Shown here: one piece after another, positions 6,046 to 53,506 of the stretch
Position numbering within the stretch: the first letter of the stretch is position 1
How the letters are laid out: every line of letters begins with the position of its first letter
From: a virus
Length of the DNA: 64,000 nt
Virus record (IMG/VR): IMGVR_UViG_3300003873_000007
Coordinates: 28,281-92,280 of that record
Direction: 5' to 3' (one strand)
Position numbers and translations under genes: made by a program
Notes under the pieces: generated by a model
The model's database searches: none
The model's input: only the letters and a program-made list of their open reading frames with translations
Told to the model about the DNA's origin: nothing

Positions 6046-6085
6046 ATCTAAAAAGATAACTAAAACTATTATAGAAATTATACAT
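6046..6085 (+). promoter_or_regulatory. Putative phage promoter ATCT-AWAA-AGAT-N14-TAGAAAT (copy 1)
   Basis: Same bipartite motif with an identical 14-nt spacer at 43333 and 53464, each upstream of an RBS. Confidence 0.55.
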
Positions 6086-6111
6086 ATCTACAAAAACTAA
6101 GGAAATATAAC

Positions 6112-7130
6112 ATGGAACAAATCACACCAGCCGGAATTCAAATAGACATTGAAGCAGCAACTCAAGTAGTAACTCCTCAACCAGTAGCTCAAGTAGTAAC
6201 TCCTCAACCAGTAGCTCAAGTAGTAACTCCTCAACCAGTAGCTCAAGTAGTACTCAAGTAGTAACTCCTCAACCAGTAGCAGTAGCTCAAACAATGGACC
6301 CTGAAAATCCATTACATGTGAAACCAACACCTGTTGGAGAAGAAGTAGCTGAACTAGTTAAACAAGAAGTCCTACAAAACGAAGAGTTAGAAGGAACGGA
6401 AATTGCTAGTATTGATAGTAGTTTCTGGGATTCTTTTTTAAAATTAATTGAAGTTGTTTCTACTGATTTAGAGCCTACCGATGTAGTTTCTATAAATAAA
6501 GGTAAATTATTGATCGCTAAAGGATCAGGCGCAATTTATGGTGACCTAACTGATATATTTGGCAATCATACGTGGAACATAAAAGATCCAAATAATACAT
6601 TAAAAAAATTAAAACTTATCTCAGGTGGTGAAAAAGTTACGATTATGGACGCAGCAAAATCAAATCTAGTATATTCATCAGTTAAAGGCGTAGTAAAATC
6701 AAATATCAATATTGTAAAAACTGATATTGATAATATCCAAACAGTTGAACGCATTGACCCAGGTGAACTAAAACATACATTTAAAATCAATAAAAATGAA
6801 GTATCTCGAATGTCAAATGCTAAAAAAGTTTTAGGAGCCCCATCTTTCAATATAATTATTGATGTTAATACATTTGAAGTGCTTAGTATAAATATCAACT
6901 CAGAGATCAGTTATAAATTTATTGATGCAGCAGGAAGAGAGACTATGAGATATAAAGCAATTACTTTATTTCCTGTACCAAAAGTTGATACAGATTTAGT
7001 ATTTGAAGTATATTCAAAAGACAAAGATATTTACATTAAAACTATATCTAACATTACAGTAACTGTATTAACTTACCAAGTTCGAGCAATCAAAAATCCA
7101 GACATTCAATTAGATTTTAACGATTATTAA
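6112..7130 (+). CDS. Putative sliding clamp (T4 gp45-like) with N-terminal QVVTPQPVA repeats; frameshifted at ~6252 as sequenced
   Basis: Directly upstream of the clamp loader, with a helix/strand pattern resembling gp45. ATG 6112 has an AAGGA RBS but stops at 6261 because of an 11-nt partial repeat; the downstream frame 6294..7130 is intact. Confidence 0.5.
6161..6279 (+). repeat. 27-bp tandem repeat CTCAAGTAGTAACTCCTCAACCAGTAG (4 full copies plus one 11-nt partial copy)
   Basis: Units start at 6161, 6188, 6215 and 6253; partial unit at 6242-6252. Confidence 0.9.
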
Positions 7131-7144
7131 GAATAGGTTTTATA

Positions 7145-8176
7145 ATGGAAAATTTAATGCAAAAACCATGGTTCGAAAAACATAGACCTCAAGTAATTGA
7201 TGATGTTGTTTTTGAATCACCTGAGGTTGAAAAAAAAATTAAAGGTTTTGTTGAACAAGGTTGGATTCAAGGAAATATTATTTCCTTTGGTCCAGGTGGG
7301 GTAGGAAAAACAACAATTAATAAAATATTATTACATAGTATAGTAAAAAGTACACATGATTATTTTATTTTAAGTAAAAGTGTTTCAGATATTGATAAAT
7401 TAAATTCATGGTTACTTGATGGTGCAGTATCATCGAAGCAACGTATTGTTATATGTGAAGAGTTTGATCGATTAAGCCCTCAAGCACAAACTGCTTTAAA
7501 AGATGGGTTAATGGAAAGGTATATGCCGAAAGTAGCATATATCGTTACGACGAATAATATTCATGGAATTGATAGCGCTTTACTTCAACGATTTAATGAA
7601 AAATTAAATTTTACAAGTTTTAACGTAGATGGTGTTTATTTTCGAATGAAAAAAATATTAGATCTAGAAAATGTTAAATATGAGGATAATGATCTATATG
7701 CTGTTGTGATGTCATTTGAACATAAAGGTATTAGAGAATTATTAAATAATCTACAAGGTGGAACAATCAATGGTGAATTTAAATCTAGCAATTTGACCAA
7801 TAATGTATTAAGTTCATCTGGAGTAGAAGAAGCAATTATTTCATATATAAAATTTTTTATCCAATACATAATGACATTAACACCAGATGTTATATATCCA
7901 ATATGTACTATACCAAATTCCGATCCAAATATAGCAAAACATTATAATCCTATGATTGAGTTTATGGAGAAAGATCCAAGTATTAATTATGAATATATTT
8001 ATAAAAATTTATTGAATGATGTTGATATTTTACTTCCATTGAAACATATTTTTACAAAATATTATCAAGAATTGAAATTGATACCTATGCCAAATATACA
8101 TCTACAGTCGTGTTTATTTGAAGTATTTACAACATTGTACACATTACGAGGTGGAGAAAAAAAGTTAATCCATTAA
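7145..8176 (+). CDS. Clamp loader AAA+ subunit (RFC small / T4 gp44-like)
   Basis: PWFEKHRP (RFC box II), Walker A GPGGVGKTT, Walker B ICEEFD, ALLQRF arginine finger. Confidence 0.9.
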   Translation: MENLMQKPWFEKHRPQVIDDVVFESPEVEKKIKGFVEQGWIQGNIISFGPGGVGKTTINKILLHSIVKSTHDYFILSKSVSDIDKLNSWLLDGAVSSKQRIVICEEFDRLSPQAQTALKDGLMERYMPKVAYIVTTNNIHGIDSALLQRFNEKLNFTSFNVDGVYFRMKKILDLENVKYEDNDLYAVVMSFEHKGIRELLNNLQGGTINGEFKSSNLTNNVLSSSGVEEAIISYIKFFIQYIMTLTPDVIYPICTIPNSDPNIAKHYNPMIEFMEKDPSINYEYIYKNLLNDVDILLPLKHIFTKYYQELKLIPMPNIHLQSCLFEVFTTLYTLRGGEKKLIH

Positions 8177-8239
8177 GAAATTGTAGAACTATAATTGAGA
8201 AATACAAAAAGTTAACATAGAAATATATATAACAAGAAG

Positions 8240-8384
8240 AAGACTTTTACAACTAATAGGTCTTATGCTATATAATATAGTTGGTCATCGATGACAACTA
8301 TATTACATTAGTATAAGTCGCTTGAAGTTATAGTAAGTCTTACTTATTTATTCAAAAAAATAATTTACCTGCCTGTCAGGTAAA
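8240..8384 (+). other. Structured leader or possible ncRNA: ~100-nt imperfect hairpin plus a small hairpin
   Basis: Nested inverted repeats AAGACTT/AAGTCTT, CTTATGCTA/TAGTATAAG, TAATATAGTT/AACTATATTA around GTCATCGATGAC; second stem TTTACCTG/CAGGTAAA at 8364-8384. Confidence 0.55.
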
Positions 8385-8405
8385 AATTAAACCAAGAGAG
8401 TTAAT

Positions 8406-8798
8406 ATGATAAATATTTTACAATTAGTTAAAGAACCAAAAGATTTTGATACTATGGTATCAAGAAAGACTGGAGCTATCGATTTTATAGTTGAAGGAGT
8501 TGTTGTTAATAAAAAATCTGGTAAAGGATATAATGTTGAGGTTCATATGGATACAAAAAAATTAGAGAAAACAAGCAATCTAAAAGTTGCTTGTTCTTGT
8601 GATGATTTTCAGTATAGATGGGCATATGTTTTATTTCAAAAAGGAGCATTACTTAATCCTAGAAAATATGTATTAGAACCTCCAAAAAAGACAAATCCTG
8701 ATCAAAATATAAATGCATGTAAACACATTCATACTTTTTTAAAGGTTGAATTAGATAAATCACTTAAAACTTTTAGTAATAAAAAAGGCAGTTTATAA
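8406..8798 (+). CDS. SWIM zinc-finger protein
   Basis: VACSCDDF...ACKHIH (CxC...CxH). Confidence 0.7.
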   Translation: MINILQLVKEPKDFDTMVSRKTGAIDFIVEGVVVNKKSGKGYNVEVHMDTKKLEKTSNLKVACSCDDFQYRWAYVLFQKGALLNPRKYVLEPPKKTNPDQNINACKHIHTFLKVELDKSLKTFSNKKGSL

Positions 8799-8814
8799 TG
8801 AATAAGGATATTAA

Positions 8815-11800
8815 ATGGCAATAGAATTATCATTCTCGTTATTTGAGAATGCAAATAAATTGAGAAGTGTTACAAACCCATCTTCTTTAAAAGCTGGAAA
8901 ATTTAAGTTTACAGAAGATGGATTATATTCCGAGTCTATATTTGGACCATTAAAAAATAATTCATGTTCATGTGGAGCCATTTTCTCAAAAGAAAATTTA
9001 GGAGTTCGATGTGAAACATGTGATGTATTATGTGATACAAATATGCTTCGTAGTTCCACTTTTGGAAGAATTGATTTGCCTAAAAATATATATATTATAT
9101 TACCAATTTTTCAAAACTTGTTAGGTAATATTTTCGGTCAGACTGCAATTAAAAGCATATTATCATATCAAAAATATGAAGATAATAAACAGAAGCCATA
9201 CTATTATTCGATTCAGCAACAGAAATTAGTTAAAATTAATAATTTTAAAGATAATGAAAAACGCATATTGAAAAAAGTTTATGATATAACAACACTACAT
9301 AAATTATACAGAAGTATGTTAAGAAATAAAGTTTTTAAAGAAAAGATTTTAGAACATTTATCAGATGATAGAATAGCTGATTATGTGTTTGTTAATTTTA
9401 TTCTAGTTATCCCGCCTGATTCTAGACCATTAATTCAATTAAATAAACAATATCAAGCGCATGCGATTACAGCTGCATATACTGAGATTTTAAAAAATAT
9501 CAAAAATAGTTTTATTGATAAATTGTTTCAAACAGATTCTGAAGGATTTGGACAAACAGTTTATAAGTATCAGTCAAGTATTAATAAATTATATGCTGAA
9601 ATAACTGATAAAAATTTTCAAAGAAAAAAAAGTATAGTTCGAGAATCATTAGCTGGAAAAACAGTAGAGACTTCTCAGCGAGCCACTATTGTACCGGAAC
9701 CTGTTCTTGCTCCAGGAAGCATAGCATTACATGAAGAAACTGTAAAAAAGATTTTTCAATTGGAACTTTTAAATTTTGTTAATTCTGAATATGAAAAACA
9801 AGAAAAAGATTCTAGTATTACGAACTTTGTACAAACTGTTCATAAACAAACAGCAAGTAATGGAGATATAAATATATCAGATGAGCTGTTTAAAAAATTC
9901 TTAGATGAAAAGGGTTCAGATCTAAGAATGCTATTAGAACGACCGCCTGTGCTATGGAGATATAATATTTCTGGGGCTTTACTAGGTCTAGTATATGCTG
10001 ATAATAAACACGTTGGAATTAAACAGGATCGTGTAACTGGTATGAATTCTTTAGTTGCACAAATGTATAATAGTGATTATGATGGAGATAATCTATCAGT
10101 TTATGCATTAACTAGTGAACAAGCAAAAAAAGATTTTTGGAACACCTATATGGAGAATTCAGTAGAGTTCGAACATCATAGAGGATTAATTGTAAATCCA
10201 GAACATGAAGCAATTTATGCTGCTTATATATTAAGTGTAAATGCTAACAAACGAACAATTAGAAAATATGATATTGAACAGTATGATTCATATGATGATT
10301 TTGAAGTTCAGATTGATACAATTAATCGTACCCCAGGCAGAATAGTTTCTATTGATGGAGACAAATTGCCGTATACAATCGCAGTTATAAATAAAGCATT
10401 GGGTCTAAATAAAAAGATATATGATGGAAGTTATATATTAAATAAAAAAAATTTACAAAAGCTATTAAAAGTTTTAAGAGAAAATGTTGATGATAAAGAA
10501 TTTTATACATATGTTCATAATTTTGATAAATTTTTATTAGAATGTTCAACTATAATTCAAGATTGTAATCCAACATTTGATTTAGATGACTTTGCAATTG
10601 GTAGTGATGAGATTGATAATTATAAAAAGACCTTGGTAAATGAACCTTATATAGCATTTCATCAAAACGATATTTTATTTCAAGAAATTGTTACACCTAA
10701 AGTAAAAGAAAGAGATACTAATATTTTAGCAAAAGTTTTTGATTCTGGAGCAAGAATCAAATCAGTTCAGTTATTAAAAGCTGTTTCAAATAATGGTATC
10801 CCTACGAATATTTACGGTAAAGCTTTTCAAGAAAATATTAAAAATTCATTGCTTGATGGCTTAACTAAACGTGAATTTTTTATGGGAGGAGATAGTGCTA
10901 GATTAGCATTAGCCCAACGACAGGAAGCTATTCCAAAAGGAGGAGAACTTCAGCGTAAATTTTATTATGCGACAGGATTTTTAAAATTAGACACCTTAGA
11001 CGATTGTGGATCTGATAGAGGTTTTGAGTTTAAGATACTTGATAAACAACATTTAGAATCATTGTATTCAAGGTATTATGTAACAGGTGAAGAAATTGAT
11101 ACAACAGATTTAAGTCTTATTGGCACATATGTTAATTTAAGAAGTCCAATTTATTGTGAATCTAAGAATTATAAAGTATGTAAAAAATGTTTTGGTCATA
11201 AACAACCGCAAAGTGTTGCATTAGGCGCAAGTATCGGCGCGTATATATCAGAAAGTATTATCCAAAGTGTTTTACGAACACATCACTTTTCAGGTGCTTT
11301 TATTACACAAATAAATGAAACAATGACTAAACTTATTAAAAAATTAAGATTTGTTTCACCAAATAAAATTTATTACAATGATGAAAATGACGTTTTAAAA
11401 TTGCAAGAATTACTTAATTCTTCAAAATATTATGATGATCCGAATCATGTTGAATTAATAAAAAAGGAAGATTACTATGAAATAATAATAAACGAGTTAC
11501 CATTTAATGATGATAGTGTTAAACAATTAAATAATATTGTTAGCATAATTGACAGGAATCGTGATAATGAAAACATGTTATCTCTCAATGAAATGTATAA
11601 TTTTTTATTAGATAACGTTGTGTTACCTAATGGAATTTTAAGTATTTTTATTGAATTAGTTATAGGAATATTATATTATGATGAAAATAAAGTAATGATA
11701 CGCTATAGTAAATTACCAATAGATCATCAAATTGCATTAAAAACTGTTATCGATAGATTAGATCCGAAATTATCAATCTTTCACAATTTCAGCAATAAAG

Positions 11801-11880
11801 CAATTAATAGAATATACACTACAAAAATTAAAGAGAATCTGGATCATATGTATTCAGATTTAATCTCTTGTTACCATTAA
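8815..11880 (+). CDS. rpoC: Phage multisubunit RNA polymerase beta'-like subunit
   Basis: GLYSESIFGP plus CSCG/CETC Zn site, VIPPDSRPL, catalytic NSDYDGD, bridge-helix-like ARLALAQ..GELQRK, second Zn site (DCG, RSPIYC, CKKCFG), trigger loop QSVLRTHHFSG. Confidence 0.93.
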   Translation: MAIELSFSLFENANKLRSVTNPSSLKAGKFKFTEDGLYSESIFGPLKNNSCSCGAIFSKENLGVRCETCDVLCDTNMLRSSTFGRIDLPKNIYIILPIFQNLLGNIFGQTAIKSILSYQKYEDNKQKPYYYSIQQQKLVKINNFKDNEKRILKKVYDITTLHKLYRSMLRNKVFKEKILEHLSDDRIADYVFVNFILVIPPDSRPLIQLNKQYQAHAITAAYTEILKNIKNSFIDKLFQTDSEGFGQTVYKYQSSINKLYAEITDKNFQRKKSIVRESLAGKTVETSQRATIVPEPVLAPGSIALHEETVKKIFQLELLNFVNSEYEKQEKDSSITNFVQTVHKQTASNGDINISDELFKKFLDEKGSDLRMLLERPPVLWRYNISGALLGLVYADNKHVGIKQDRVTGMNSLVAQMYNSDYDGDNLSVYALTSEQAKKDFWNTYMENSVEFEHHRGLIVNPEHEAIYAAYILSVNANKRTIRKYDIEQYDSYDDFEVQIDTINRTPGRIVSIDGDKLPYTIAVINKALGLNKKIYDGSYILNKKNLQKLLKVLRENVDDKEFYTYVHNFDKFLLECSTIIQDCNPTFDLDDFAIGSDEIDNYKKTLVNEPYIAFHQNDILFQEIVTPKVKERDTNILAKVFDSGARIKSVQLLKAVSNNGIPTNIYGKAFQENIKNSLLDGLTKREFFMGGDSARLALAQRQEAIPKGGELQRKFYYATGFLKLDTLDDCGSDRGFEFKILDKQHLESLYSRYYVTGEEIDTTDLSLIGTYVNLRSPIYCESKNYKVCKKCFGHKQPQSVALGASIGAYISESIIQSVLRTHHFSGAFITQINETMTKLIKKLRFVSPNKIYYNDENDVLKLQELLNSSKYYDDPNHVELIKKEDYYEIIINELPFNDDSVKQLNNIVSIIDRNRDNENMLSLNEMYNFLLDNVVLPNGILSIFIELVIGILYYDENKVMIRYSKLPIDHQIALKTVIDRLDPKLSIFHNFSNKAINRIYTTKIKENLDHMYSDLISCYH

Positions 11881-12069
11881 AGGAATTAAAAATGAAAGAG
11901 TTAAAAAAATTTATGAAAATTAAAGCAGTGAAACTAGTTCTACTTTTTATTATTATCGGAATGTTAGTTGTAAATTTAGGAAGTATTGCTTATTATATTT
12001 TTATTGGAGCAGTTGTTGTATTCTTTGGAATTATGGGATATTCATATTACAAAATTAAAACTTCAGGAG

Positions 12070-12096
12070 AAGAATAGGAGTTCTTCTCCTATTCTT
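12070..12096 (+). terminator. Hairpin, possible terminator
   Basis: 11-bp stem AAGAATAGGAG/CTCCTATTCTT overlapping the stop of 11868..12077. Confidence 0.5.
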
Positions 12097-12101
12097 GTCG
12101 C

Positions 12102-12695
12102 ATGATTCAAGGATTACTAATCTTTAAATTAAAAGTATTTGTCTTTATTTTGAAAGTTTTGAAAGTTTTGAAAGTATTAATTAAATTATCTATACCTTTA
12201 TTATTTATATATGGTATAATTTATTATACTTTTTATACTTTGATTGGAATCGTATTTATATTATTTTTTAAATTAAGTTATATTCTATATATAATATATA
12301 AATTTAAAAAATATGAAAATGAAATATTAGACTTGTTGTCTCAGGCATCTTTTAAAAATAATACAAAAATAGCAAAAGACTTTTTTAAATATGATCTATT
12401 TGCAAGATATATTTTAAAATTATTGCTAGATAAACAAGTAAAAGAGAAAAACGAAGCGAAGGACGGTGCATCGAAGGATGATAATCCTTCTAAAATTTTA
12501 GGAATTGATGATTGTTTTAAAATATTAAATTTAAACATATCTAATTATAACGAAAAAGATATAAAAAAAAATTGGAAGAAGTTAGCTAAAATATATCATC
12601 CTGATAAATTTCAGAATGAATATGAAAAAAATAAAGCTCAAAAAAAATTTATTGAAATAACGGAATGTAAAGATAAGTTATTGAAATCATTATAA
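12102..12695 (+). CDS. Membrane-anchored J-domain protein (DjlA-like architecture)
   Basis: Hydrophobic N-terminus; C-terminal IKKNWKKLAKIYHPDK J-domain. Confidence 0.8.
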   Translation: MIQGLLIFKLKVFVFILKVLKVLKVLIKLSIPLLFIYGIIYYTFYTLIGIVFILFFKLSYILYIIYKFKKYENEILDLLSQASFKNNTKIAKDFFKYDLFARYILKLLLDKQVKEKNEAKDGASKDDNPSKILGIDDCFKILNLNISNYNEKDIKKNWKKLAKIYHPDKFQNEYEKNKAQKKFIEITECKDKLLKSL

Positions 12696-12704
12696 AGGAT
12701 TAAT

Positions 12705-13979
12705 ATGTGTAGTTTTGTAAAAGTATATGGGAAAGCGTCAAAAGTTAAAGATATAATACCCGAAATATATGAAATGTTGAAAATAAAAGGTGGTGATGAA
12801 TCAGCTGTTATAATTGAGAGACAAAAATTTACGAGTAGAATATCATATAATAATCTACCAGAAGATAATATATGGGAAGATAATATTTCACAAATATGTT
12901 CAAATGAATCATATTATAATTTTTTCTTTTTTAGCAGATTGACTCCTGAAATGGAAGAACCCTCGACATTTAAACAGCCATACATTACATCAAATAATGA
13001 TATAGTTATGGTTCATGGTACAATACCTAGAGCAGAAGAGATTGCAAAAGAAAAAAATATTAATATCTCAGTAGATACTGAGATATTTCAGCATTTACCA
13101 TTTTATGATGCGATTGAACAAGTACAAAATACAGGTGGAAAAATTAGTGCTGTATCATTGAAACATCATTATAATTCTGGTCTAGGTTTATATAAATATT
13201 CATATAAAGATTTAGAACTTATATCTAATATAGATATCGGATATTTTAATAAAAAAGAATTACCAATCGATACAATTGATGATTCAACTATTAAATTAGT
13301 ATCTTTATATTCAGGTGGATTAGATATAACGTGTGCAACTCAAAAAGCTTTAGCTGAGAATGATTATGAATCAGCGGAATTATGGTATTTTGATTGGGGT
13401 ACGGTAGCAAATGCTGAAGAAATTAAAGCAGGTGAATTAGCAGCTAAAGAATATAGTAAGATATATTATTTGTCAGTGGATTTTAAAATCATTGATGTTA
13501 AAGATTATTTTAGTAATTTACTTGAAGTTTGTGGATTAAAAGATATTAGACTAATGAATAAAAATTCAATTGGAGCAGGTGAAGCGGAAGCTGAAGCAGC
13601 TATTTCATATGTACCTTTTAGAAATACACAACTATTAACATTAGCAGCTGCTCGATGTGAACAGCTTTATCCAAATGAATTGGTTGATATTTGTATAGGT
13701 GCAAATTTATCAGAAGGCATGATTTACTTAGATAACTCAGAAACTTTTGTAACAACAATGAGTAAGTTAGTAAAAGTTGGTGGACAAGAGTGTTCAGGTT
13801 TTAATGTAATTGCTCCATATGTTAATAGAACTAAGACAGCAATGGTTAAAGATGCGAATGAAAATCATTATTTATTATCAAGTTTTAGTTGTTATTTTCC
13901 AGTTAATGGTGAACCATGCGGAAAATGCGGTTCATGTTTACTTAAAGAAAATGCTTTAAAAAGAGCGGAAAATGATTAA
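12705..13979 (+). CDS. queC: Gat-QueC fusion (Ntn glutamine amidotransferase plus preQ0 synthase)
   Basis: N-terminal Met-Cys, KGGD, SRLTP, QP, VHGTI, DTE (Ntn-like); SGGLDI PP-loop, YVPFRN, CY...CGKCGSC Zn site. Confidence 0.85.
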   Translation: MCSFVKVYGKASKVKDIIPEIYEMLKIKGGDESAVIIERQKFTSRISYNNLPEDNIWEDNISQICSNESYYNFFFFSRLTPEMEEPSTFKQPYITSNNDIVMVHGTIPRAEEIAKEKNINISVDTEIFQHLPFYDAIEQVQNTGGKISAVSLKHHYNSGLGLYKYSYKDLELISNIDIGYFNKKELPIDTIDDSTIKLVSLYSGGLDITCATQKALAENDYESAELWYFDWGTVANAEEIKAGELAAKEYSKIYYLSVDFKIIDVKDYFSNLLEVCGLKDIRLMNKNSIGAGEAEAEAAISYVPFRNTQLLTLAAARCEQLYPNELVDICIGANLSEGMIYLDNSETFVTTMSKLVKVGGQECSGFNVIAPYVNRTKTAMVKDANENHYLLSSFSCYFPVNGEPCGKCGSCLLKENALKRAEND

Positions 13980-18291: not shown

Positions 18292-20697
18292 GTGCAAAAT
18301 TTTGGAAATTTAGAAGACGTATTAGAAGAGGCTGAGCAATTAGATCAAATAAATGCGTTGAGCAAAGAAGAAATAGATGACGCTATTGAATTAGGAAAAT
18401 TGGATTTAACAGATCTATATAAAAATATTGACGATTCGAAGATATTATTTTCACCACAAATTGAAATATTTGAATCATTTGCTGCGCATGTTGATGCATC
18501 AAGAACAAACATGTCTGCAAAACAGTTACTACAAGTTTGTACAAGTGATAATAATGATACACCTTATATATTAAATAAAAATTATCAAGCATTGACAAAT
18601 ATTGATTCTCCTTTTGTTGAGTATGCAGCAGAAGATGGAATTGTTTTATATAGCAATTACAATTATCTTGTATTGTATTATTTAAAAAGTAATTCATTTA
18701 AAACTGTATATTGTCCTTCAATTAAAAGAATGACTAATAATACTATAACTTTAAAATATAAAATGTCTGTTGAAAAGAATGTTGAATTTAAAAAGGGTGA
18801 TGTATTATATGATTATACTGGACAAACAATAGACAATGTTCCAAGAATTGGATACAGGACTAATATTTTATATGGTTCATTTTATGGATATACTGCAGAT
18901 GATGCGTTTGTTATGAGTGAATCATATGCAGATAAAACCAGAATAGATTATTCAAAGAAAATATTTATTCCTATCAGTAAAGAAATTAAATATTTACAAA
19001 ATTCAAAAAAGAATTATTTTTTTAAATTAGGAGAGATAAGTGATGAAAATTATATAGAATATTTTAAAATTGATTCGAGTGATAATATGCTGAGTGAATT
19101 TAACAATACTAGTAAAAAACAATCAAAAATATATGGAAAAAGTGTTGATAGTATAAATGGAGGAACAATAAAAGAATTTAAAGTTCACCGAATCACAGAT
19201 AAGACTTTTGATGAGCTAGAAGAAGAATATATTTACACTGATGGAATGATTAAAGAAGTACAATCACAATATCTTAGACAAATAGAAATCAAAAAAGATA
19301 TATATAATAAACTTTCAACCGTATATGTTAATAAAGAAGAAGCTGTTGAAATGACAAATACAATTTTTAATCAGTGGGAAAGCACTGAGTCATTTCCAAA
19401 TTTAAAACTTGAAGGAATAGCTACAGATTATCGAATTGAAAAAGATTCTATCGATTATGTATTAGAAATCGAAATATATAAATCTGAGCCAACATGTGTC
19501 GGGGATAAATTTGCAAATGTGTATGCTGGTAAAGGTGTTGTAAGTTTAATCTTACCTGACCATTTAATGCCAGGAGGATCAGATATTATTTTTAATCCTC
19601 TCGGTTTATTTGGAAGAAATAACTGGGGAACTGTATTTGAGATAGGATTGGCTAAAATCATTACCGATGTTGAACAACATATTGATAATGCGGAAGATAT
19701 TGTATTAAGATTAACATTTATAAATAAAAACTTTATTAAATTATATGATAAAGAATATTATGATAGAGTGGATGATATGATACAAGAGATTGCTGAAAAT
19801 GGTTCTATTTACGAAAAATTTAAAGCTTCTGTAAAAGAATATGGTTTTTATCTTTTAGTTGATAATTTTCCAGGAATTTCTTTTAAAGATTATATTGATA
19901 AATTTTTAAAAATTTATCAAGAAACTTTTGATATAAATATTACAGAAAAAACAGAGATTATTTATTCAAAAGAATTGATGCAATATATGAGAGATCGTGG
20001 ATTTACTAGTAATGTTTTTGGTAGTACAGTAGTACAAGAAGTCAAACAGAATGTATATATTGGACAAAATTATTGGATCAAATTATTTCATACAAGTTAT
20101 TCTAAATATAATGCTATTGCATTTGCTAATAATTATAGTAAAAGTACAGGAGAGCCTCCTAGAGGTCGAACAAAGAATGGTGGTTGTCATATTAGTTGGC
20201 AAACAACAGCTGCTTTAATTGGACATTCTGCTAATAATATGTGTTCTGTTGAATTAAGAACAATTAAAAGTGATGCTATACAAGATAAGAATAATCTTAA
20301 TAGTAAGATGATACAACATGGCAAATATGTTATGAAAGATAAGTATATGTCTCCAACCGTTAATACGTTAAATAACGGATTAAATATGCTATTGTTAAGA
20401 TTTATGAGTATATATGATAATAATTCGGAAGATTTTTTCAAAGATGAAATTATTGATATTAATGGACAAGACGATGAAGAGTTTGATATAGATACATTAT
20501 TCACAGGCAAAACAGAAGATTGTGAAATTGATAATACTGAAACTGCTTTATGTGATGATGAAGATATACTAGATGATGTAACAGAAGAAGTTGTTATAGA
20601 AATTGAAAGTGTTTTAATTGATAATGTAAATGTATCTACTGAAGTAGAATGTGATAGTTGTGATCAAGTAACGATTAATTTAGATCTTGATGAATAG
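18292..20697 (+). CDS. rpoB: RNA polymerase beta-like subunit, C-terminal half, with acidic tail (GTG start)
   Basis: DASRTNMSAKQLLQ, GYTADDAFVMS, GDKFANVYAGKGVVS, DIIFNPLGLFGRNNWG, KLFH...K, PRGRTKNGG. Confidence 0.9.
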   Translation: MQNFGNLEDVLEEAEQLDQINALSKEEIDDAIELGKLDLTDLYKNIDDSKILFSPQIEIFESFAAHVDASRTNMSAKQLLQVCTSDNNDTPYILNKNYQALTNIDSPFVEYAAEDGIVLYSNYNYLVLYYLKSNSFKTVYCPSIKRMTNNTITLKYKMSVEKNVEFKKGDVLYDYTGQTIDNVPRIGYRTNILYGSFYGYTADDAFVMSESYADKTRIDYSKKIFIPISKEIKYLQNSKKNYFFKLGEISDENYIEYFKIDSSDNMLSEFNNTSKKQSKIYGKSVDSINGGTIKEFKVHRITDKTFDELEEEYIYTDGMIKEVQSQYLRQIEIKKDIYNKLSTVYVNKEEAVEMTNTIFNQWESTESFPNLKLEGIATDYRIEKDSIDYVLEIEIYKSEPTCVGDKFANVYAGKGVVSLILPDHLMPGGSDIIFNPLGLFGRNNWGTVFEIGLAKIITDVEQHIDNAEDIVLRLTFINKNFIKLYDKEYYDRVDDMIQEIAENGSIYEKFKASVKEYGFYLLVDNFPGISFKDYIDKFLKIYQETFDINITEKTEIIYSKELMQYMRDRGFTSNVFGSTVVQEVKQNVYIGQNYWIKLFHTSYSKYNAIAFANNYSKSTGEPPRGRTKNGGCHISWQTTAALIGHSANNMCSVELRTIKSDAIQDKNNLNSKMIQHGKYVMKDKYMSPTVNTLNNGLNMLLLRFMSIYDNNSEDFFKDEIIDINGQDDEEFDIDTLFTGKTEDCEIDNTETALCDDEDILDDVTEEVVIEIESVLIDNVNVSTEVECDSCDQVTINLDLDE

Positions 20698-30100: not shown

Positions 30101-30102
30101 AA

Positions 30103-37459: not shown

Positions 37460-37477
37460 ATCATTATCGATAAAGAT
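37460..37477. repeat. Palindromic repeat, one-mismatch copy (ATCATTATCGATAAAGAT)
   Basis: Intergenic, upstream of 37522. Confidence 0.75.
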
Positions 37478-40080: not shown

Positions 40081-40098
40081 AATTAAAAGGAAAATTAA

Positions 40099-42198: not shown

Positions 42199-42220
42199 TT
42201 ATCTTTATCGATAAAGATAA
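42199..42220. repeat. Palindromic repeat copy inside a CDS (TTATCTTTATCGATAAAGATAA)
   Basis: Perfect 22-bp palindrome within 41304..42422, in the stretch encoding FIFIDKDN. Confidence 0.8.
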
Positions 42221-42780: not shown

Positions 42781-43326
42781 ATGGATATTTTATGGTATAA
42801 TTATGATCTTTCTGATGAAAGACAAGTTATAAAATGTGTTAAACAAATTGAGCGCATCTGTAGAGATTCTTTAGAATATGATGACTGGCAAAGAAAATGT
42901 AAATACACTGACTCCACAGATTGCCCAATCTGTGGAGATAATTATTATGATAATAATTCAAAGTGTGAAAGTCATCATCATCCAAAAACATTATTTGATA
43001 TTGTTGAAAATGTTATTGATGACCATCTTGAAAAAAACGATTTAGATGATGTGACAGGATTAAGTGTAGTCCAAGAAGTCATGGATAAACATTTATTTCA
43101 AAAAGTTTCATATATAAATTTATGTCAACATTGTCACAAAAAATATCATGCTGGTCATCCGGATGTTAAATCAAAAATGGATCTGATTTTTAAAAAACGT
43201 GTAGAAGATGCAATGAAAGAAGAGGTCGTTGAGGAAATTGATACTGAAATAAAAATATCATCAAATATTTCAACATTAAACATTGAAACAACTAACGATT
43301 TTATCTCTATCGATATAGATAATTAA
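42781..43326 (+). CDS. HNH-like zinc-binding protein
   Basis: CPICG...ESHHHP...NLCQHCHKKYH. Confidence 0.55.
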   Translation: MDILWYNYDLSDERQVIKCVKQIERICRDSLEYDDWQRKCKYTDSTDCPICGDNYYDNNSKCESHHHPKTLFDIVENVIDDHLEKNDLDDVTGLSVVQEVMDKHLFQKVSYINLCQHCHKKYHAGHPDVKSKMDLIFKKRVEDAMKEEVVEEIDTEIKISSNISTLNIETTNDFISIDIDN

Positions 43327-43332
43327 AAAATT

Positions 43333-43370
43333 ATCTATAAAGATAATAATATTTTACATAGAAATAATAT
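43333..43370 (+). promoter_or_regulatory. Putative phage promoter (copy 2)
   Basis: ATCTATAAAGAT-N14-TAGAAATAATAT upstream of 43399. Confidence 0.55.
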
Positions 43371-43924
43371 TCATCATATTATCACAAAGGAAAGAAATAT
43401 GAAAAGACAACGGAAATATATAGGAAATTTACCTATATATGAAAAAAATCATAGTAATAAATTTACAGGTTCGTATGTTCCTATGGGGTGTCTATTTGTA
43501 ATAAATTCTTATGTTGAATCTAACATTTGTGTTTTACAATTTAGTCTACAAAATAATCCAACATTGCAAAGTTTTAATAATTTTGAAGTGCATATGGATT
43601 TAGCTTCATTGCTTCGATTAAAGCATTTTTTATATATTGGATTAGATTCTGATAGAAGCATAAATGGTCATCTTCACGTAACAAGCACAAAAATTAATCA
43701 AAAATTGAATGAACAAAATGCAGCTTATGTTAGTATAGATGATAATATTTTAAAAATTATAATTGATAATTCTAGTCAAACCGAATTTAAAATAAAATCA
43801 CCATATCAAATCAATGTTTTCGCTGAGTTGATAAATACAATAATTGATATATTGAAAATGAATATGTATTCTAATCAAATATCAAATAAAATAGATATAT
43901 CTGCACCAGCTCTTAAATCGCATA

Positions 43925-45746: not shown

Positions 45747-46351
45747 AAAATAAAATAATAGGAAACAGAATGGAAATGGAAAAAATGAAAGAACAAGTAC
45801 AAAAAATGATAGATTGGATCAATAAAGTTTTAAATATTGGTGTTTTTAATAATTTAGAAGAATCCACTACATCTGTGTCAGAGATAAAAGTTAGTAATAA
45901 AAGTACAGGTAAAGTAATGCCTGAGCCTTTAGTCGAAGAAGAAGCACAATATTGTTTAGATGAAGAAACTTTTGTTCCTAACATATCAGGAAAATATTCA
46001 GAACAAGAAGTTGATACAATTAAATTATTTTTAAAAAATAAAAATTTTAAAGATATATCATTAGAAGAATTTATAGGATTAGCATTTAAATTGAATCGTA
46101 AAGTATCTTCAGTTAAAACTAAAGCTAAAAAATTATATGATTCAAAGTAATATAATGAAAAAAATTATATGTTACGAAATAAAATATGGAGTGTTGACAA
46201 ATAATCGTTTTGAAATATCAGAAGAAGATTTTAAATTAGATATTAAAAAATGTGCTAAGACACATATTAAAAATGGTTATAAAATTTATTTAGATACGGC
46301 GACTTTTAATGATTTAAAAGTCTTTTAGCATCTAAATAAAAAAGGAGTTAT

Positions 46352-46804: not shown

Positions 46805-47891
46805 ATGCATTGAATGTAATTTATCTGAAATATCTGATAAAGTATGGACAAAATATAGTTTAAATCGAAAAAATATTGGCTCAGATGGATGTTGGTTAAA
46901 ACCAAAACTTATAAATGGTCATCCATATTATAGAAAAAGATGCTTGAATTGTTTTAAAAAATTATATAAAAGAGATGCTAAAAAATTAAATACATTAAGT
47001 TATGATTTTATATATCTATTTGATATATCAGAAGATGTTTTAAAAAAAGCAAATGCGAATCGAGCAGTAACTCTTAAAAATATGGTTAAGAAATATGGTG
47101 AAATTGAAGGAACCTTAAAGTTTGAAACGTATTGTAAAAAACAAGCACATAGCAATAGTCTAGAATTTTTTTTAAATAAAGGATATACAAAACAAGATTT
47201 TATAGATTATAATAAAAATCGAGCGGTAACCCTTGAAAATATGATCAAAAGATATGGTGAAATTGAAGGAACTTTAAAATTTGAAAATTATTGTGAGAGA
47301 CAACGATACACAAAATCATTAGATTATTATGAAGATAAGTTTGGAAAAACCTCAGCAAAACTTGAATTTGATAAAACTAATAAATTAAAAGCAATAACTC
47401 TTAAAAACATGATTATGAAATATGGGAAAATTGAAGGAACCTTAAAGTTCAACAATTTTGCTAAAAAATCACAATCTGGATATTCTGAGATGGCTTCTAA
47501 TGTTTTCATATTTTTGTTTGAAAAAATAATTCACGACTTTCCAAATTTAAAGGATAGTATTCAATTTCAACCATTAACACAAGAATATTTTTTATCAAAT
47601 ACTGATGGAATATATTTTTACGATTTTACAATTAAGAATCTTAAAATTATCATAGAATTTAATGGGGATGTGTATCATGCAAATCCATTAATTTATAAAA
47701 AATCAGATAAACCAATACATTGGTTTTATCCAGATTTAACTGCGAATGAAATCTGGAATAAAGACAAACTAAAAAAAGATCGAGCTATAAATAACGGCTT
47801 TACATTTTTTACAATTTGGGAGTCAGATTTAAAGCAAACTCAATTTTTAGAAAATTTTTATTTAACATTAAAAAGGAAATTGGTATGTTAG
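46770..47891 (+). CDS. Free-standing Vsr-like homing endonuclease between the split-intein halves
   Basis: Three repeats of (R/K)A(V/I)TL(K/E)NM.K.YG.IEGTLKF; FYDF...IIIEFNGDVYHANP...IWESD; lies in a different frame from both intein halves. Confidence 0.8.
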   Translation: MIELLQFVSRPKCIECNLSEISDKVWTKYSLNRKNIGSDGCWLKPKLINGHPYYRKRCLNCFKKLYKRDAKKLNTLSYDFIYLFDISEDVLKKANANRAVTLKNMVKKYGEIEGTLKFETYCKKQAHSNSLEFFLNKGYTKQDFIDYNKNRAVTLENMIKRYGEIEGTLKFENYCERQRYTKSLDYYEDKFGKTSAKLEFDKTNKLKAITLKNMIMKYGKIEGTLKFNNFAKKSQSGYSEMASNVFIFLFEKIIHDFPNLKDSIQFQPLTQEYFLSNTDGIYFYDFTIKNLKIIIEFNGDVYHANPLIYKKSDKPIHWFYPDLTANEIWNKDKLKKDRAINNGFTFFTIWESDLKQTQFLENFYLTLKRKLVC

Positions 47892-48007
47892 TTAAATATC
47901 ATGATGATTACACAGTTGAAGATTTAGGTATTTGTGAGGAATGGGTTTATGATATCGAGGTTAAGAATAATCATAATTTCTTTGCAAATTCAATTCTTAT
48001 TCATAAT
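47885..48007 (+). mobile_element. Split intein, C-fragment
   Basis: Blocks F/G ending His-Asn, with +1 Ser. Confidence 0.88.
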
Positions 48008-48889
48008 AGTGCTTATTTACTTTATGATTTACCATTTAATAAATATGAAGATATTCACCAACTCGTCAATTATGTTCAATCTATTGCTCGAGAATTAGGG
48101 GAAATATATAATAATGCATTAGAATATTATTTATGTAATTTTGCTGGATTAAATCCTGAATATAACACAATGGATTTTAAATCTGAGGTTATTGCATATA
48201 AAGGTTTCTTTAACACTAAAAAGTTTTACTCACTTGCTAAATGTTGGGACGAAGGAGTATTCTTTGAAGAGAAGCCTAAATTAAAAACAACAGGTGGACA
48301 AATAAAAAAATCTGATGTTACACAGATCACCAAAAAGTTATTAACTGAAATTTATCATATTTTAGTTACAGATATAAATCAAAACGATATTATAAAAATG
48401 TATAGAATGATTTTTATTGGTTTAAAAAATAAATACAAATTACAAATATCAGAAGATATTGAAAATATGGAATTTACAAGTTTTAGTGTTCCAAAAAAAT
48501 GGGGAAGTACAGAAAAAAGTATTCCTCCGTTTGTAACAGGAGCTAAATTATACAATGCTATAATAGGGGATACTTTTCGTCCATCCGATGCATTTATTGT
48601 TGTAAAAGTTATTATTGATGTTGAGAAATTATTAGATTTTTATATACAAAATAATGTTAATGATGATAAATTTACATTACAGCGGACAGAAGTACAAGAA
48701 TTGAAAAATAAAATAAATGTGATTAGTATACCTCCAATTTTAAGTGATGAAGAAAAAACAAAGTTGTTGGATGTAATGAAAAAATTAAATATTAGATTAA
48801 ATTTAACAGAAATAATTGAATATAATATCGATTTAAAAATCGATCCGTTTGAAAAATTATTTGATGAAGAGACAAGGCTAAGTGCATGA
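47885..48889 (+). CDS. polB: Split-intein C-fragment (41 aa) fused to DNA polymerase B C-terminal palm/thumb
   Basis: AAGGA RBS before ATG 47885; VYDIEV.NNHNFFANSILIHN/SAYL; then MDFKSE, TKKFY and KTTGGQIKKSD PolB-type motifs. Confidence 0.88.
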   Translation: MLVKYHDDYTVEDLGICEEWVYDIEVKNNHNFFANSILIHNSAYLLYDLPFNKYEDIHQLVNYVQSIARELGEIYNNALEYYLCNFAGLNPEYNTMDFKSEVIAYKGFFNTKKFYSLAKCWDEGVFFEEKPKLKTTGGQIKKSDVTQITKKLLTEIYHILVTDINQNDIIKMYRMIFIGLKNKYKLQISEDIENMEFTSFSVPKKWGSTEKSIPPFVTGAKLYNAIIGDTFRPSDAFIVVKVIIDVEKLLDFYIQNNVNDDKFTLQRTEVQELKNKINVISIPPILSDEEKTKLLDVMKKLNIRLNLTEIIEYNIDLKIDPFEKLFDEETRLSA

Positions 48890-49950
48890 TACAACATAAT
48901 AGTTTAAATCCGATCAACGTTGATAACATTCAAGAAATCGTTAAACATTTAAAAGATAATAATTACAAATTTTATCAATTTTATAATATTGAAATCGAAG
49001 CGGATGAATATAGTTTTATTCAATATATGTTGAAATATAAAGATTCACCAAGAAGCAAGGTCTTAAATAAAACATATTATGATATTGAAACTTTTGTTAA
49101 CGAAGATGGTGATTTTACTGATCCGGAAAAGGTTGATAGACCAGTAAATAGTATTGCTCTTTATAATAATATCTCAAATACAGCTTATGTTATAGCATAT
49201 GTTACAGAATGCAATATTACAGATCCTGATGAAATTTCATCAGGGATTCATAAACTGTTTACAGAAAAAGTTGCAGAAAATGAAACTTATAACATCCCTG
49301 ACATTACTTTAGATATTCGAATTTTATCTGATGAAAAAGAATTGATAAAAGAATTTTGGTCTTTAATGCAAGAACAAAATACTTTAGCTTTAATTGGATT
49401 TAATAGTAATACATTTGATGATGTTTTTATGTTTAATAGGACTGCTAAATTATTTGGAAAAGATGCTCGAGATAATATGGTATCAGAATTCGGTATTGTT
49501 GAACAATATGGTCAGCAATTCGAAATTCCTGATTATTTATTAGTAGATTTATTAAAATTGTATAAACCTGTTGGGTCAGGAGGGGGAGGATTAGGAAAGT
49601 CACTTCCTGACTTTAAATTAAATACTGTTGCTTATGAAGAATTAGGTATAACAAAATTAGATTTACCTGGCGGGTTTAGATGGAATTATTTAAATGATAT
49701 AGTAGGATATTTAACATATAATATATTTGATACATTATTAACATTTAAAATGGATGAAAAATTAATGTTTATGGAATTAATGTTTGACTTATCAAAATAT
49801 AATAATGCTAGTATGGGAGCGACAATTAATGGTCGATCAATATTATATTTATATAGGAATGATCTAATGTATTGCTCACAAGATAAAATTATTAGATCAA
49901 AAAAATTTTCGAGAGAAGTGCTTTTTGAACCAAAAATAAAAGATATTTAA
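48886..49950 (+). CDS. polB: DNA polymerase B 3'-5' exonuclease domain as a separate gene
   Basis: ExoI YYDIET, ExoII GFNSNTFDD, KLNTVAYEELG, ExoIII YNIFD. Confidence 0.88.
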   Translation: MIQHNSLNPINVDNIQEIVKHLKDNNYKFYQFYNIEIEADEYSFIQYMLKYKDSPRSKVLNKTYYDIETFVNEDGDFTDPEKVDRPVNSIALYNNISNTAYVIAYVTECNITDPDEISSGIHKLFTEKVAENETYNIPDITLDIRILSDEKELIKEFWSLMQEQNTLALIGFNSNTFDDVFMFNRTAKLFGKDARDNMVSEFGIVEQYGQQFEIPDYLLVDLLKLYKPVGSGGGGLGKSLPDFKLNTVAYEELGITKLDLPGGFRWNYLNDIVGYLTYNIFDTLLTFKMDEKLMFMELMFDLSKYNNASMGATINGRSILYLYRNDLMYCSQDKIIRSKKFSREVLFEPKIKDI

Positions 49951-50401
49951 AGGAGAAAATGTTAATGACAAACAGTGAAGTGCTACAGAAAATAAATGAT
50001 TTAAAATTAGAAATAGATGAACAAACACTACTATGTAAAAATATAGTAAAGGTAGAAAATGTTACATCAAAAGATATACAAAACTTATTAGATTCAACTT
50101 TGGAAAAAATTGATACTTTGAAAAAGTATCAACAAATAATTTTAAATAGAAATTATTTAGAATTCATAGAATATAATTCTGAAAATATAAATATCCAAAC
50201 TTTAATTAAAAGAAAAGAAAAATTATTATTAAAGAAGAAATTTGAAACAATTTTAATTAATTCATATAATGACACAGAAGGACTTGTGAAAATATCAATA
50301 GATGCTTTTCAACACGTTCAAGAATATAAAAAAGAATTATCAAAAATTCATAGTATATTAAATATTTTTAATAATACACAATTCAAATTAGAGGAATATA
50401 A

Positions 50402-51709
50402 ATGAAAAAAATAACAGAACTTAGACTCGAACCACTTGATAGAAAACCACAATTAGTACAACATTTTGTATCATTAGAAGGGGAGGGTGGCACAATCGGA
50501 AGAAGTGCATTGTATATCAGAACAGGTGAATGCTCATTACGTTGTAATTTTTGTTTCGGCTCACCTAAAGGTAAAAGAGAACCTAAAATTACAACATTAA
50601 ATCAAAAGCGTAAAAAATTAACAAAAATTGAAGTCGGTGATAAATTATTAACATATAATGATGACCAAGAACTGGTTGAAACAGAAGTGTATAATGTAGT
50701 TGATAGAGAAGTTGATAAATATTTAAAAATTAAAATTGACGATAAATTTTATTATGTTACACATGAACATCCATTTTTTACAACAAACGGTTTAAAAAGA
50801 GCAGATGAATTAAAAATTGGTGATGATATTATACACGGAAATGAGGAAGAATATAATATTCTTCGTATGAAAATAAATAATTCAATACATAATGAATCTA
50901 ATCAAAAACGATTAAATAAAACTGTTCAAAAAATTGAAGAAATTTCTGATAAATTAAAAGTTTATAATATATCATGTGCACCATATAATACATATCTGAT
51001 TGATGATATGTGGGTACATAATTGTGACACCGCTTATAGTGTAGAAGGGAAAGATGAACATAATATTGTTGATATGACAAGTGAAGAATATGTTAATTTA
51101 TTAAGAAAAGAATATTCTAGATCGCAACGCCAAAACATTTCAAATTTATCAATTACTGGCGGCGAACCTCTTTTAAATTTAAATTATATGAGAAAACTTA
51201 TACAATCAACATTAAAAGCATTCCCAAAAATTACTCAAATTATTTTTGAAACAAATGGTACAATGTTAAGTAAAGAACAAAACGCTTTTAAATTGATAGA
51301 ACAACTCGGATGTTTTCATCCACATCTAAAATTTATGTTGAGTATTTCTCCTAAACTTTCAGGAAAAATTAGCTACAGTAATATTAAAAATGATGAAGAA
51401 ATTTTAGATATATACAAAAATGTTCTTAATAATTACAAAGGTATATTAGATGCACATTTTGATATTCAATTAAAATTTGTACATAGTAATGTTCTAAGTA
51501 AATGGAATGAGACTTTAATTGATTATGCTTTATCTATGATTGACCCGTTACATAAAAATCAAATATTAATTATGCCGTTTACACCAGTTGACCCTTTAGG
51601 TAGAGATAAAGATTCTTGGAATTCATCAAAAGATGATGCTGCTAGATATGCAATGGATAATTATTTTAGATATAGTCCTAGAGTTCATGTTGATAGACGA
51701 TTAGATTAA
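50402..51709 (+). CDS. queE: 7-carboxy-7-deazaguanine synthase (radical SAM) containing a mini-intein
   Basis: SLEGEG...G, CSLRCNF[intein]CDT, ITGGEP, FETNGT, ISPKL, SPRVH. Confidence 0.9.
   Translation: MKKITELRLEPLDRKPQLVQHFVSLEGEGGTIGRSALYIRTGECSLRCNFCFGSPKGKREPKITTLNQKRKKLTKIEVGDKLLTYNDDQELVETEVYNVVDREVDKYLKIKIDDKFYYVTHEHPFFTTNGLKRADELKIGDDIIHGNEEEYNILRMKINNSIHNESNQKRLNKTVQKIEEISDKLKVYNISCAPYNTYLIDDMWVHNCDTAYSVEGKDEHNIVDMTSEEYVNLLRKEYSRSQRQNISNLSITGGEPLLNLNYMRKLIQSTLKAFPKITQIIFETNGTMLSKEQNAFKLIEQLGCFHPHLKFMLSISPKLSGKISYSNIKNDEEILDIYKNVLNNYKGILDAHFDIQLKFVHSNVLSKWNETLIDYALSMIDPLHKNQILIMPFTPVDPLGRDKDSWNSSKDDAARYAMDNYFRYSPRVHVDRRLD
50552..51022 (+). mobile_element. 157-aa mini-intein inside the CxxxCxxC motif of QueE
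   Basis: Starts Cys (CFG), IEVGD, VTHEHPF, LKIGD, VYNI, ends WVHN followed by Cys; no endonuclease domain. Confidence 0.9.
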
Positions 51710-53463
51710 GGATTTATTAAATGATAAATCCGTATGATAACAGTATACAATCGGACTATTACATAAAACCATCAATTGATTATTACGATAATGAATTAAA
51801 ACGTCGCGACACATTTAGAATTGATACTTATAATATTTTGATATATGAAGTTTCAAAAGACTCAATGCATTATAATCACAATTTACATTTGCTAACTCTT
51901 ACTAATATGGATATACGAATGTATACTCTTTTACAGTTACCAGATACTCGATTATTTTTAGACGTACTTGAAAATAGTGATATTAAATCATCAACCAGAT
52001 TTAAAATTACAAATGTTCACTTAATTAATGAGGAAGATGGTTTATACAATATTCAATTATCAATGATTAGTGATTATGTTTTTGATATGTTAAATTCAAA
52101 TAAATATGCTAGTATATCCATATCAGATGTAAATGTTCAACTGACATCATTTGAACTGATTTCTAAAATTATTCAACAAATGGTATCCGATCATGGAACA
52201 AAAGTTGATGCAAACTATACAAATGCTGGAGAATTAAAGAATTTATTATCATATGTTAGGATCCCTGATAATTTAAATGATTTTGAGATTTTTAATTATT
52301 TATTTGATACTTATCCTCCTTATCTTTTAGCTCCTTATCTTATCTTCGATGACTTTAATATTAGACAAAATAGTAAAAGTGACTTTAGTATAATCCTTTT
52401 AAATATTTGTGATATTAATGGGAGCTATCCTTTAAAAAATATTAAAAGCATACCTGGTACAGTAACTGGTTATGTTGAACATTTAGACAGTAAACCGTTG
52501 CTAAATTATAATGAAGTTTTTGAAGAATTACAAGCAACTTTAATAATAAAAAATGAGAATGAGAATAAAGTATTTGAATTGAAACCTGCTCAAACATCAA
52601 GACATTCAAATAAGATTAAACACATAAACAGTTCGCTAACAATCGAATCATTTAAACAAAAAATGATTATGCGAAAAATTTTAGCGGAATATGAAGCAAG
52701 TATAGAAACATATATTTATGATGATATAAATTTATCTGATATTATATTTGGTGAAGTATACAATATAAATAATAGTTTAATTTATAATTATTTACCAGTT
52801 AGTTTCTTTTATAAATTTATAAAAAAACAAGATAATAGTTTTAAATTGGAAACAAAAATAGAATTTCTTAGACTTCCAGGGAGTCTAATAACAAAAGGAT
52901 GGTGATGGCAAAACAAAACGATGCAATCAGCAGTCTAATTAATCCTTTATATTTTAAAATGATTAAAAATGCTGTTGTAAAACATGGTAGAATTAATGTT
53001 CAAGCTCTTTCTGAAAAGTTTAATATTCTACCAGGAAATACATATTTTCGAAACTTTATAAAAGACAATGATCAAAATTATCTAGGAACCAATGGATTAA
53101 AAAGTATTTTAAATGTATGTGGATATACTATTCGATTAGTTCCTGTTAAAAAAAGTGATATTGATACGATGACATATATTGAAAAGTTGACAGCTGAATC
53201 GTTTACTGATATTAGTGAAAAAATTAGTAAACAAGCAGAGATGTTAAAACGACCTCCAAAAAAAGAAAAGAAAAATAGTCCAAGAATAATAGCAAACGCT
53301 AAATTAATTAATGATAGTATAATGGGAATTTCATCTGATGATATTAACGATATATTTGATGATGATAACGATGATTTAATTATAGGAACATTTGATGATT
53401 TGGATGATTTACCGGACATTGAAATCGATCCTATAAAATTAGCGGAACATCTAAAAGAAAACG

Positions 53464-53506
53464 ATCTATAAAGATATTTTATATTAATATAGAAATAATA
53501 TATAAC
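53464..53506 (+). promoter_or_regulatory. Putative phage promoter (copy 3)
   Basis: ATCTATAAAGAT-N14-TAGAAATAATATATAAC upstream of 53519. Confidence 0.55.

Follow-up and report, generated by a model that had tools for sequence, protein, structure and literature searches.

A candidate promoter family centred on TAGAAAT, with a symmetric upstream box at fixed distance, in an uncultured jumbo phage

The DNA analyzed here, hereafter the window, is a stretch of 64,000 nucleotides that corresponds to bases 28281-92280 of the 92,280-bp virus record IMGVR_UViG_3300003873_000007, in which the G+C content is 26%. Genes were called crudely as the longest open reading frames (ORFs). Nearly all of them lie on the plus strand, with the exception of a minus-strand block at the left end, and intergenic DNA constitutes 5% of the genome. 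Three of the gene boundaries in the window carry a bipartite motif, ATCT-N4-AGAT followed after 14 nt by TAGAAAT, which a first-pass annotation had proposed as a promoter class of the phage's own RNA polymerase, devoted to replication genes. The window encodes an intact beta'-like RNA polymerase subunit (8815-11880), in which the catalytic motif DYDGD is present, as well as a beta piece with the Rpb2_6 domain (18292-20697), and a second beta' C-terminal piece is found in the minus-strand block beside a primase-helicase, where it matches Rpb1_5 weakly (E = 4e-4, below Pfam's cut-off). The phage has two multisubunit RNA polymerase gene sets.

Two relatives were used for most comparisons. The exact bipartite pattern gave mostly single chance matches among viral contigs, but two matches fell in one record of 84 kb (G2), whose beta' subunit is 77% identical to that of the window. 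A scan of viral contigs with an 18-bp palindrome, described below, matched the same contig as the bipartite pattern and led to an IMG/VR record of 181,622 bp (G3, the 182-kb relative) with genes on both strands. A scan of viral contigs with a single protein found nothing useful, and a search of genome contigs found no relative. The start of the 182-kb relative (L293:800-9400) is syntenic with the right end of our record (window 56970-64000), with about 76% protein identity in the pieces of DNA polymerase B (PolB). Because this relative continues the record by synteny, the source is an uncultured jumbo phage genome of roughly 270 kb, of which the record holds about one third, and the two records are overlapping parts of related ~270-kb genomes. 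The isolates closest to the beta' subunit are distant (at most 24% identity) and belong to jumbo phages, including AR9-like Yersinia and Staphylococcus phages; its metagenomic family is 39-83% identical and includes contigs of up to 260-272 kb. Pooled motif counts given below cover four genomes, and the controls for copy counts in the two relatives used the same pattern read backward.

The three copies are exact, each with a 14-nt spacer, and all of them lie on the plus strand at gene boundaries, as first described. At site 1, the upstream box ATCTAAAAAGAT (6046-6057) forms the centre of a longer inverted repeat (6040-6063), and the core with its flanks (6066-6081) has TAGAAAT at 6072-6078, ahead of the ATG of a repeat-rich ORF at 6112. 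At site 2, the box ATCTATAAAGAT (43333-43344) lies in an inverted repeat at 43330-43347; the core (43353-43368) includes TAGAAAT at 43359-43365, and the ATG follows at 43399. Site 3 has the same box ATCTATAAAGAT (53464-53475), which overlaps the stop codon of the ORF at 52899-53471 and whose stem has just 4 bp and forms no stable hairpin (minimum free energy -1.2 kcal/mol); its core (53484-53499) includes TAGAAAT at 53490-53496, with the ATG at 53519. The bipartite pattern was expected 0.04 times in the window, and none of 100 shuffles reached the three copies observed. TAGAAAT by itself shows no enrichment over the whole window (41 occurrences versus 41.7 expected).

The picture differs for intergenic DNA, where the first-pass annotation would have been undermined had the motif been no commoner than chance. 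The 8-mer ATAGAAAT is 7-12 times enriched there over dinucleotide shuffles of the intergenic DNA, with 12 copies observed versus 1.66 in this genome, and 10 versus 0.83, 32 versus 3.19 and 4 versus 0.27 in three relatives. Alignment of 60 intergenic ATAGAAAT sites yielded the logo TTA-M-Y-ATAGAAAT-W-A-W, in which positions -6 to -2, outside the search pattern, are strongly conserved too. TAGAAAT is the centre of an almost invariant 13-nt core, TTA-M-Y-ATAGAAAT, as also seen in the ratio of 35 exact intergenic cores to 10 with one mismatch. Relatives with a beta' subunit of only 39-50% identity keep the core as TTAnCATAGAWAT.

All three window copies are present at the orthologous boundaries of the 84-kb relative. 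In these ortholog pairs, TAGAAAT is identical at 21 of 21 positions and the box at 31 of 36, compared with 21 of 42 in the spacer and 15 of 60 in the upstream flank. The spacer is 14 nt long in all three pairs, and the distance to the ATG shifts by 3, 8 and 1 nt. The ortholog of site 1 retains 10 of 12 box positions, and its palindromic flanks are changed yet complementary. Altogether, the 84-kb relative has six copies of the family (control, 0), half of them at orthologous gene boundaries, and the 182-kb relative has 18 copies of ATC-N6-GAT-N(13-17)-TAGAAAT (control, 0). Among the 37 pooled copies, spacers of 13, 14, 15, 16 and 17 nt occur 2, 20, 6, 6 and 3 times, respectively, and none measures 10-12 or 18-19 nt.

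The placement of the copies relative to genes is directional. Of 72 intergenic copies, 54 face the next gene (p = 3e-5), and in the two-stranded 182-kb relative this is true for 31 of 40. Many copies are followed by a start codon 19-40 nt downstream (the minimum being 19), separated from it by an AAAGGA ribosome-binding site; where the leader is shortest, with 19 nt to the ATG, this site starts 7 nt past the motif. Copies near strand switches and in control regions form mirror pairs, ACCATAGAAAT-N11-ATTTCTATGGT, in which each member has its own box, and one back-to-back pair of cores uses a single common box. Both arrangements count in favor of promoters. The clustering of copies in gene-free control regions with tandem iterons and mirror pairs, and the three copies that travel with homing-endonuclease genes, would suit sites for a replication, partition or packaging protein, or a small mobile repeat, instead of promoters. 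We regard this explanation as barely credible, given the bias toward the following gene, the short distance to many start codons with a ribosome-binding site between, the maintenance of copies at orthologous gene boundaries, and the conserved RNA that starts right after one copy (see below).

One gene-free control region, L161:6918-7293, lies between divergent gene blocks. Within it are a mirror pair ACCATAGAAAT-N11-ATTTCTATGGT (7074-7104), a near-complete copy of the long palindrome (7113-7130) and, farther on, a tandem array of four TATTTTAAGTA units (about 7170-7215) and an extra promoter copy at 7243. A 59-aa ORF called within it is probably spurious, and the region could be an origin or a switch region. 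At three minus-strand cores (L161:8592-8598, and 35073 and 10067 in the 84-kb relative) the sequence ATCCCTARAG... follows about 11-14 nt on; therefore a small antisense or divergent RNA may exist at these places.

The upstream box generalizes to a symmetric 12-bp element, ATC-N6-GAT (typically ATCTWWAAAGAT), found upstream of roughly 40% of the core sites. At a spacer of 14 nt, both half-sites occur together in 15 cases, GAT alone in two and ATC alone in one. Boxes lie at gene ends, some of them have long complementary flanks that vary from ortholog to ortholog yet stay paired, and CGTTTT follows several copies in the relatives, all of which might indicate a mere terminator or RNA-stability hairpin of the upstream gene that stands beside a promoter by chance. 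Such a hairpin is, in our judgment, very unlikely to be the whole function. Thirteen of the 37 boxes have no pair outside the box, and many, including site 3, fold more weakly than -2 kcal/mol. In addition, the box is conserved in sequence and does not covary, its distance to TAGAAAT is fixed, and the single box between two divergent cores lies where no transcript arrives to be terminated. A terminator scan called no box, and the recognizable terminators look different, consisting of a GC-containing hairpin followed by TTCTTGTC. On these sequence grounds the box is more than a hairpin, and spacing and conservation point to a functional element at fixed distance from the core.

The kinship of the box with a long palindrome, noted at the outset from a common half-site, also stood up: the 18-bp palindrome ATCTTTATCGATAAAGAT (3988-4005, no strand assigned) reads as two overlapping ATC-N6-GAT boxes. 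Further copies are found at 4446, 24061, 24394, 24472, 24753 and 42201, and one with a single mismatch at 37460. The palindrome gave nine matches versus 0.04 expected, and the identical 18-mer occurs six times in the 84-kb relative. The exact copy at 42201-42218 lies in a coding region and is retained at the orthologous position, also coding, of the 84-kb relative; a degenerate copy with two mismatches (43303-43320) falls within the final part of the ORF that immediately precedes site 2. We considered the long palindromes as members of the same promoter class and rejected them, since no core-like element follows 13-17 nt after them; start codons lie as near as 14 nt.

The presence or absence of the box divides the core sites. 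Among 61 cores, 26 have a box at 12-18 nt, 11 have another upstream element, and 24 have neither, about eight of the latter being flanks of extended palindromes. The other element is GAGAARTACAA, with TTGAGA or TTGGGA 17 nt before TAGAAAT. Its representative in the window (8195-8227, plus strand) has TTGAGA at 8195-8200, a 17-nt spacer and TAGAAAT at 8218-8224, with GAGAAATACAA and AGTTAACA upstream. Here the first-pass annotation had listed a bare downstream box; the copy is real and conserved in relatives with beta' subunits of 39-77% identity, but it is not bare, having a distinct upstream element of its own (TTGAGA-N17). A second isolated copy, before the gene for the PolB palm (59006-59012, plus strand), is a doubtful member and probably not one, since it lacks the extended core (there is no TTA at -6 to -4 and no A at -1) and since nothing comparable stands in front of the orthologous gene of the 182-kb relative.

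The 8218 core heads an operon with the SWIM and beta' genes, preceded by a conserved structured RNA. This rod-like hairpin with a U-rich tail (8237-8356, plus strand) begins about 12 nt past the core. The RNA is about 110 nt long (z = -5.07), and 13 of its 47 pairs show compensatory changes among three sequences. It is located between the clamp-loader-like gene and the SWIM/beta' genes and has orthologs at L081:9255-9375 and L083:1990-2110, and farther relatives have a different structured segment at this position. Rfam has no family in the window or at this hairpin. A transcript appears to begin near the 8218 core, as the conserved RNA starts about 12 nt on.

The TTGAGA class also raises the question of the host enzyme, because its geometry resembles that of -35 and -10 elements and several box-less copies have TTGAGA or TTGGGA exactly 17 nt before TAGAAAT. 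For a sigma70-family holoenzyme, the box or TTGAGA would then take the -35 role and TAGAAAT that of the -10 element. We consider this improbable. TAGAAAT offers no hexamer with A at position 2 plus T at position 6, the box is unlike TTGACA, and a sigma70 scan called no site with TAGAAAT as the -10 element, its sigma70-like matches being near background. The near invariance of the 8-mer also sets it apart from host -10 elements, which are degenerate, and the phage carries two polymerases of its own. The first-pass proposal is supported in that the element behaves like a phage-specific promoter that is not of the sigma70 type.

The two classes stand before different sets of genes. The TTGAGA class is also found in front of small genes of no assigned function. 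The box class in the window precedes the region of an AAA+ clamp loader, a 514-aa ORF and the series of genes that continues to GTP cyclohydrolase I and the PolB pieces. In the 182-kb relative, its sites stand before radical-SAM genes, three genes for HNH homing endonucleases, a helicase, a thymidylate-synthase-like gene and a terminase whose operon includes a virion protein. Because of this range, the claimed specificity for replication genes was not borne out. The gene names given earlier hold in part: the AAA+ clamp-loader-like protein, GTP cyclohydrolase I and the PolB piece were confirmed, but the names 'clamp' (6294), 'dpdA' (53519) and 'ssb' (55171) were not, as nothing in Pfam or PHROGs matched these three ORFs.

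Two features of these gene runs are recorded here for their own sake. The ORF that follows site 1 (6112-6300) opens with 27-nt tandem repeats encoding the peptide VVTPQPVAQ three times and stops after 49 codons, and the clamp-like ORF restarts in a different frame at 6294; the counterparts of repeat region and body in the 84-kb relative appear to form a single ORF. A frameshift through a change in repeat length, or an error of assembly, is therefore suspected. Farther downstream, 56077-56677 is a segment of 601 nt with no called ORF that contains three copies of a unit of ~165 nt, which looks coding (a repeated peptide). It is probably a decayed or mis-called gene of a repeat-domain endonuclease type.

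A second, unrelated motif emerged from k-mer enrichment in the regions upstream of genes that have no TAGAAAT. The 8-mer TAACAAAT occurs 15 times there versus 0.42 expected. The 182-kb relative has 23 copies, of which 15 are intergenic; every one of these 15 points toward the next gene and lies 19-88 nt before a start codon. By manual count, 12 of 17 intergenic copies fit AACA-N6-TA. The late promoters of phage AR9, which are read by its non-virion polymerase, have the consensus AACA-N6-TA/G (PMC5312081); the TAACAAAT motif contains this consensus and the TAGAAAT motif does not. The form TAACAAAT-NN-TA precedes the genes for the tail sheath, major head protein, prohead protease and an adaptor or virion protein (loci L296-L301 of the 182-kb relative). 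In this genome, TAACAAAT occurs only in front of the minus-strand block with the second beta' pieces, the split polymerase, as minus-strand copies (L161:6943-6950 and L161:224-231); the intergenic DNA of the window has none. The terminator-like signature mentioned above, a GC-containing hairpin and then (T)TTCTTGTC(G/C)C, recurs at window 57835-57880, L161:7945-7980, L001:2195-2230 and L081:9140-9175, and it often immediately precedes a TAACAAAT or TAGAAAT site.

Which enzyme reads the core can be approached by analogy with other jumbo phages. In those with two such polymerases, a conserved AT-rich early motif near -10 is read by the virion enzyme (PMC7598289), and the early promoters of phiKZ and 201phi2-1 are conserved at -10, -20 and -30 (PMC11512511). 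By the same analogy, the second polymerase set of this phage would be the virion-packaged one, and the polymerase encoded in the window would read TAACAAAT. The TAGAAAT family is probably an early or middle class read by the injected virion polymerase, because a TAGAAAT promoter stands in front of the window's own polymerase operon and because the head and tail genes, like those of the second polymerase, have the AR9-late-like TAACAAAT-NN-TA upstream.

The first-pass annotation had instead named the window-encoded, non-virion polymerase as the reader, with the box as its possible activator site. Two observations speak for this assignment: a box-like site lies upstream of the minus-strand block with the genes of the second polymerase, and the terminase and virion-protein operon behind the box in the relative are of the kind transcribed by the non-virion enzyme in phiKZ-like phages. 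We nevertheless think that it is unlikely to be correct. The beta' operon of the window is behind the same core (the TTGAGA-class site at 8218), and therefore the reader must exist before that enzyme. Moreover, the structural genes have a distinct motif of their own that matches AR9 late promoters, and the promoters of non-virion polymerases known to date are short and weakly conserved (PMC7598289).

Taken together, the explanation that we favor, and hold with moderate confidence, is a promoter family of two classes with one core, in which the injected polymerase is the reader and the box marks the second class. The start site would lie within about 7 nt past TAGAAAT, since some Shine-Dalgarno sequences start as little as 7 nt past it; this would put the heptamer near -13 to -7 and the centre of the box near -33. 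The core would be read by the virion-packaged polymerase that is injected with the DNA, and not by the enzyme of the window. The class marked by the box is probably delayed-early or middle. The box might bind a putative dimeric phage factor that touches the polymerase, or might itself be contacted upstream by the polymerase. A dimeric factor near -33, acting as activator or repressor, would fit best with the symmetry, the fixed spacing and the occurrence in a subset of sites, and the 18-bp palindrome may bind the same factor.

Several points weigh against this explanation. Eighteen exact cores lie inside ORFs, albeit crudely called ones. One mirror pair in the 182-kb relative sits between genes of the same strand; either one of its members would produce antisense transcripts or the pair serves some other purpose. 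Common ancestry links the three ortholog pairs, and the paralogs too, and the independent observations are therefore fewer than the copy counts imply. Some boxes are extended by long complementary flanks, with up to 10 extra pairs, and might also act as hairpins. Among the sequencing runs listed for window 5000-12000, the only ones that contain this DNA are two DNA runs of a single sample, possibly its source; no RNA run was listed. That the box class also heads a terminase and an operon with a virion protein in the 182-kb relative is unusual for early promoters. Finally, the enzyme is assigned wholly by analogy, the box-binding factor is hypothetical, and promoter function and start sites are themselves read from the nucleotide sequence.

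A more speculative addition concerns DNA modification. The genome has genes of the 7-deazaguanine pathway, namely QueC, GTP cyclohydrolase I and a QueD-like gene. If the invariant G of TAGAAAT and the G of the GAT half-sites were 7-deazaguanine, reading by the phage polymerase or the box factor would be restricted to self DNA that bears the modification, much as the AR9 non-virion polymerase needs uracil in its promoters. We see only a slim chance that promoter recognition depends on the phage's own modification in this way.

Transcription in jumbo phages with two polymerases of their own proceeds without host sigma factors, and the way in which these enzymes find promoters is only partly understood, mainly from work on phiKZ and AR9. 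The lineage described here offers a sequence-defined code, with one invariant core, two alternative upstream elements and, apart from these, a motif that matches the AR9 late consensus. The constant distance of 14 nt from the symmetric box to the core is a target for mutation, and it hints at a factor-dependent switch of promoter class for a polymerase that has no sigma factor. With the three motifs at hand, one can predict operons and temporal classes across the many metagenomic contigs that belong to this clade. Among the papers listed in a literature search, neither palindrome occurs, and no match listed for the core words deals with phage promoters.

Comparison with known systems shows both likeness and difference. 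As in phages with phiKZ- and AR9-like early promoters, there are two split or diverged sets of beta and beta' genes, and a long, AT-rich, nearly invariant motif, detectable from sequence, lies in the inferred -10 region, in front of small unassigned genes and the genes of the non-virion polymerase, and coexists with a short late motif. The sequences, however, are unrelated: the AR9 early promoter is AAATATATATTAT-N6-G, whereas here we find TTA-M-Y-ATAGAAAT with one invariant G. Another difference from these early promoters is the symmetric 12-bp box at a fixed distance of 14 nt at ~40% of sites, which makes at least two classes per core; the box class heads a terminase as well as replication genes, and the system is known here from sequence alone. 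The likeness to AR9 late promoters (non-virion polymerase with gp226; PMC5312081, PMC5449584) concerns the TAACAAAT motif and not the TAGAAAT motif, as TAACAAAT-NN-TA contains their consensus and precedes structural genes, and the beta' subunit of the window has AR9-like phages among its nearest isolates. AR9 requires uracil in the template strand; this phage has a 7-deazaguanine pathway instead. The middle promoters of T4, with a MotA box near -30 and a sigma70 -10 element, are alike in having an upstream box at fixed distance, a shared downstream element and, presumably, a temporal class. In contrast to T4, the enzyme here would be the phage's own polymerase and not a remodelled host enzyme, and the box is palindromic and unrelated in sequence; no relatives of MotA or AsiA turned up, although no search was aimed at either. 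The TAGAAAT element is probably a lineage-specific variant of the jumbo-phage polymerase promoters, with an unusual symmetric upstream box.

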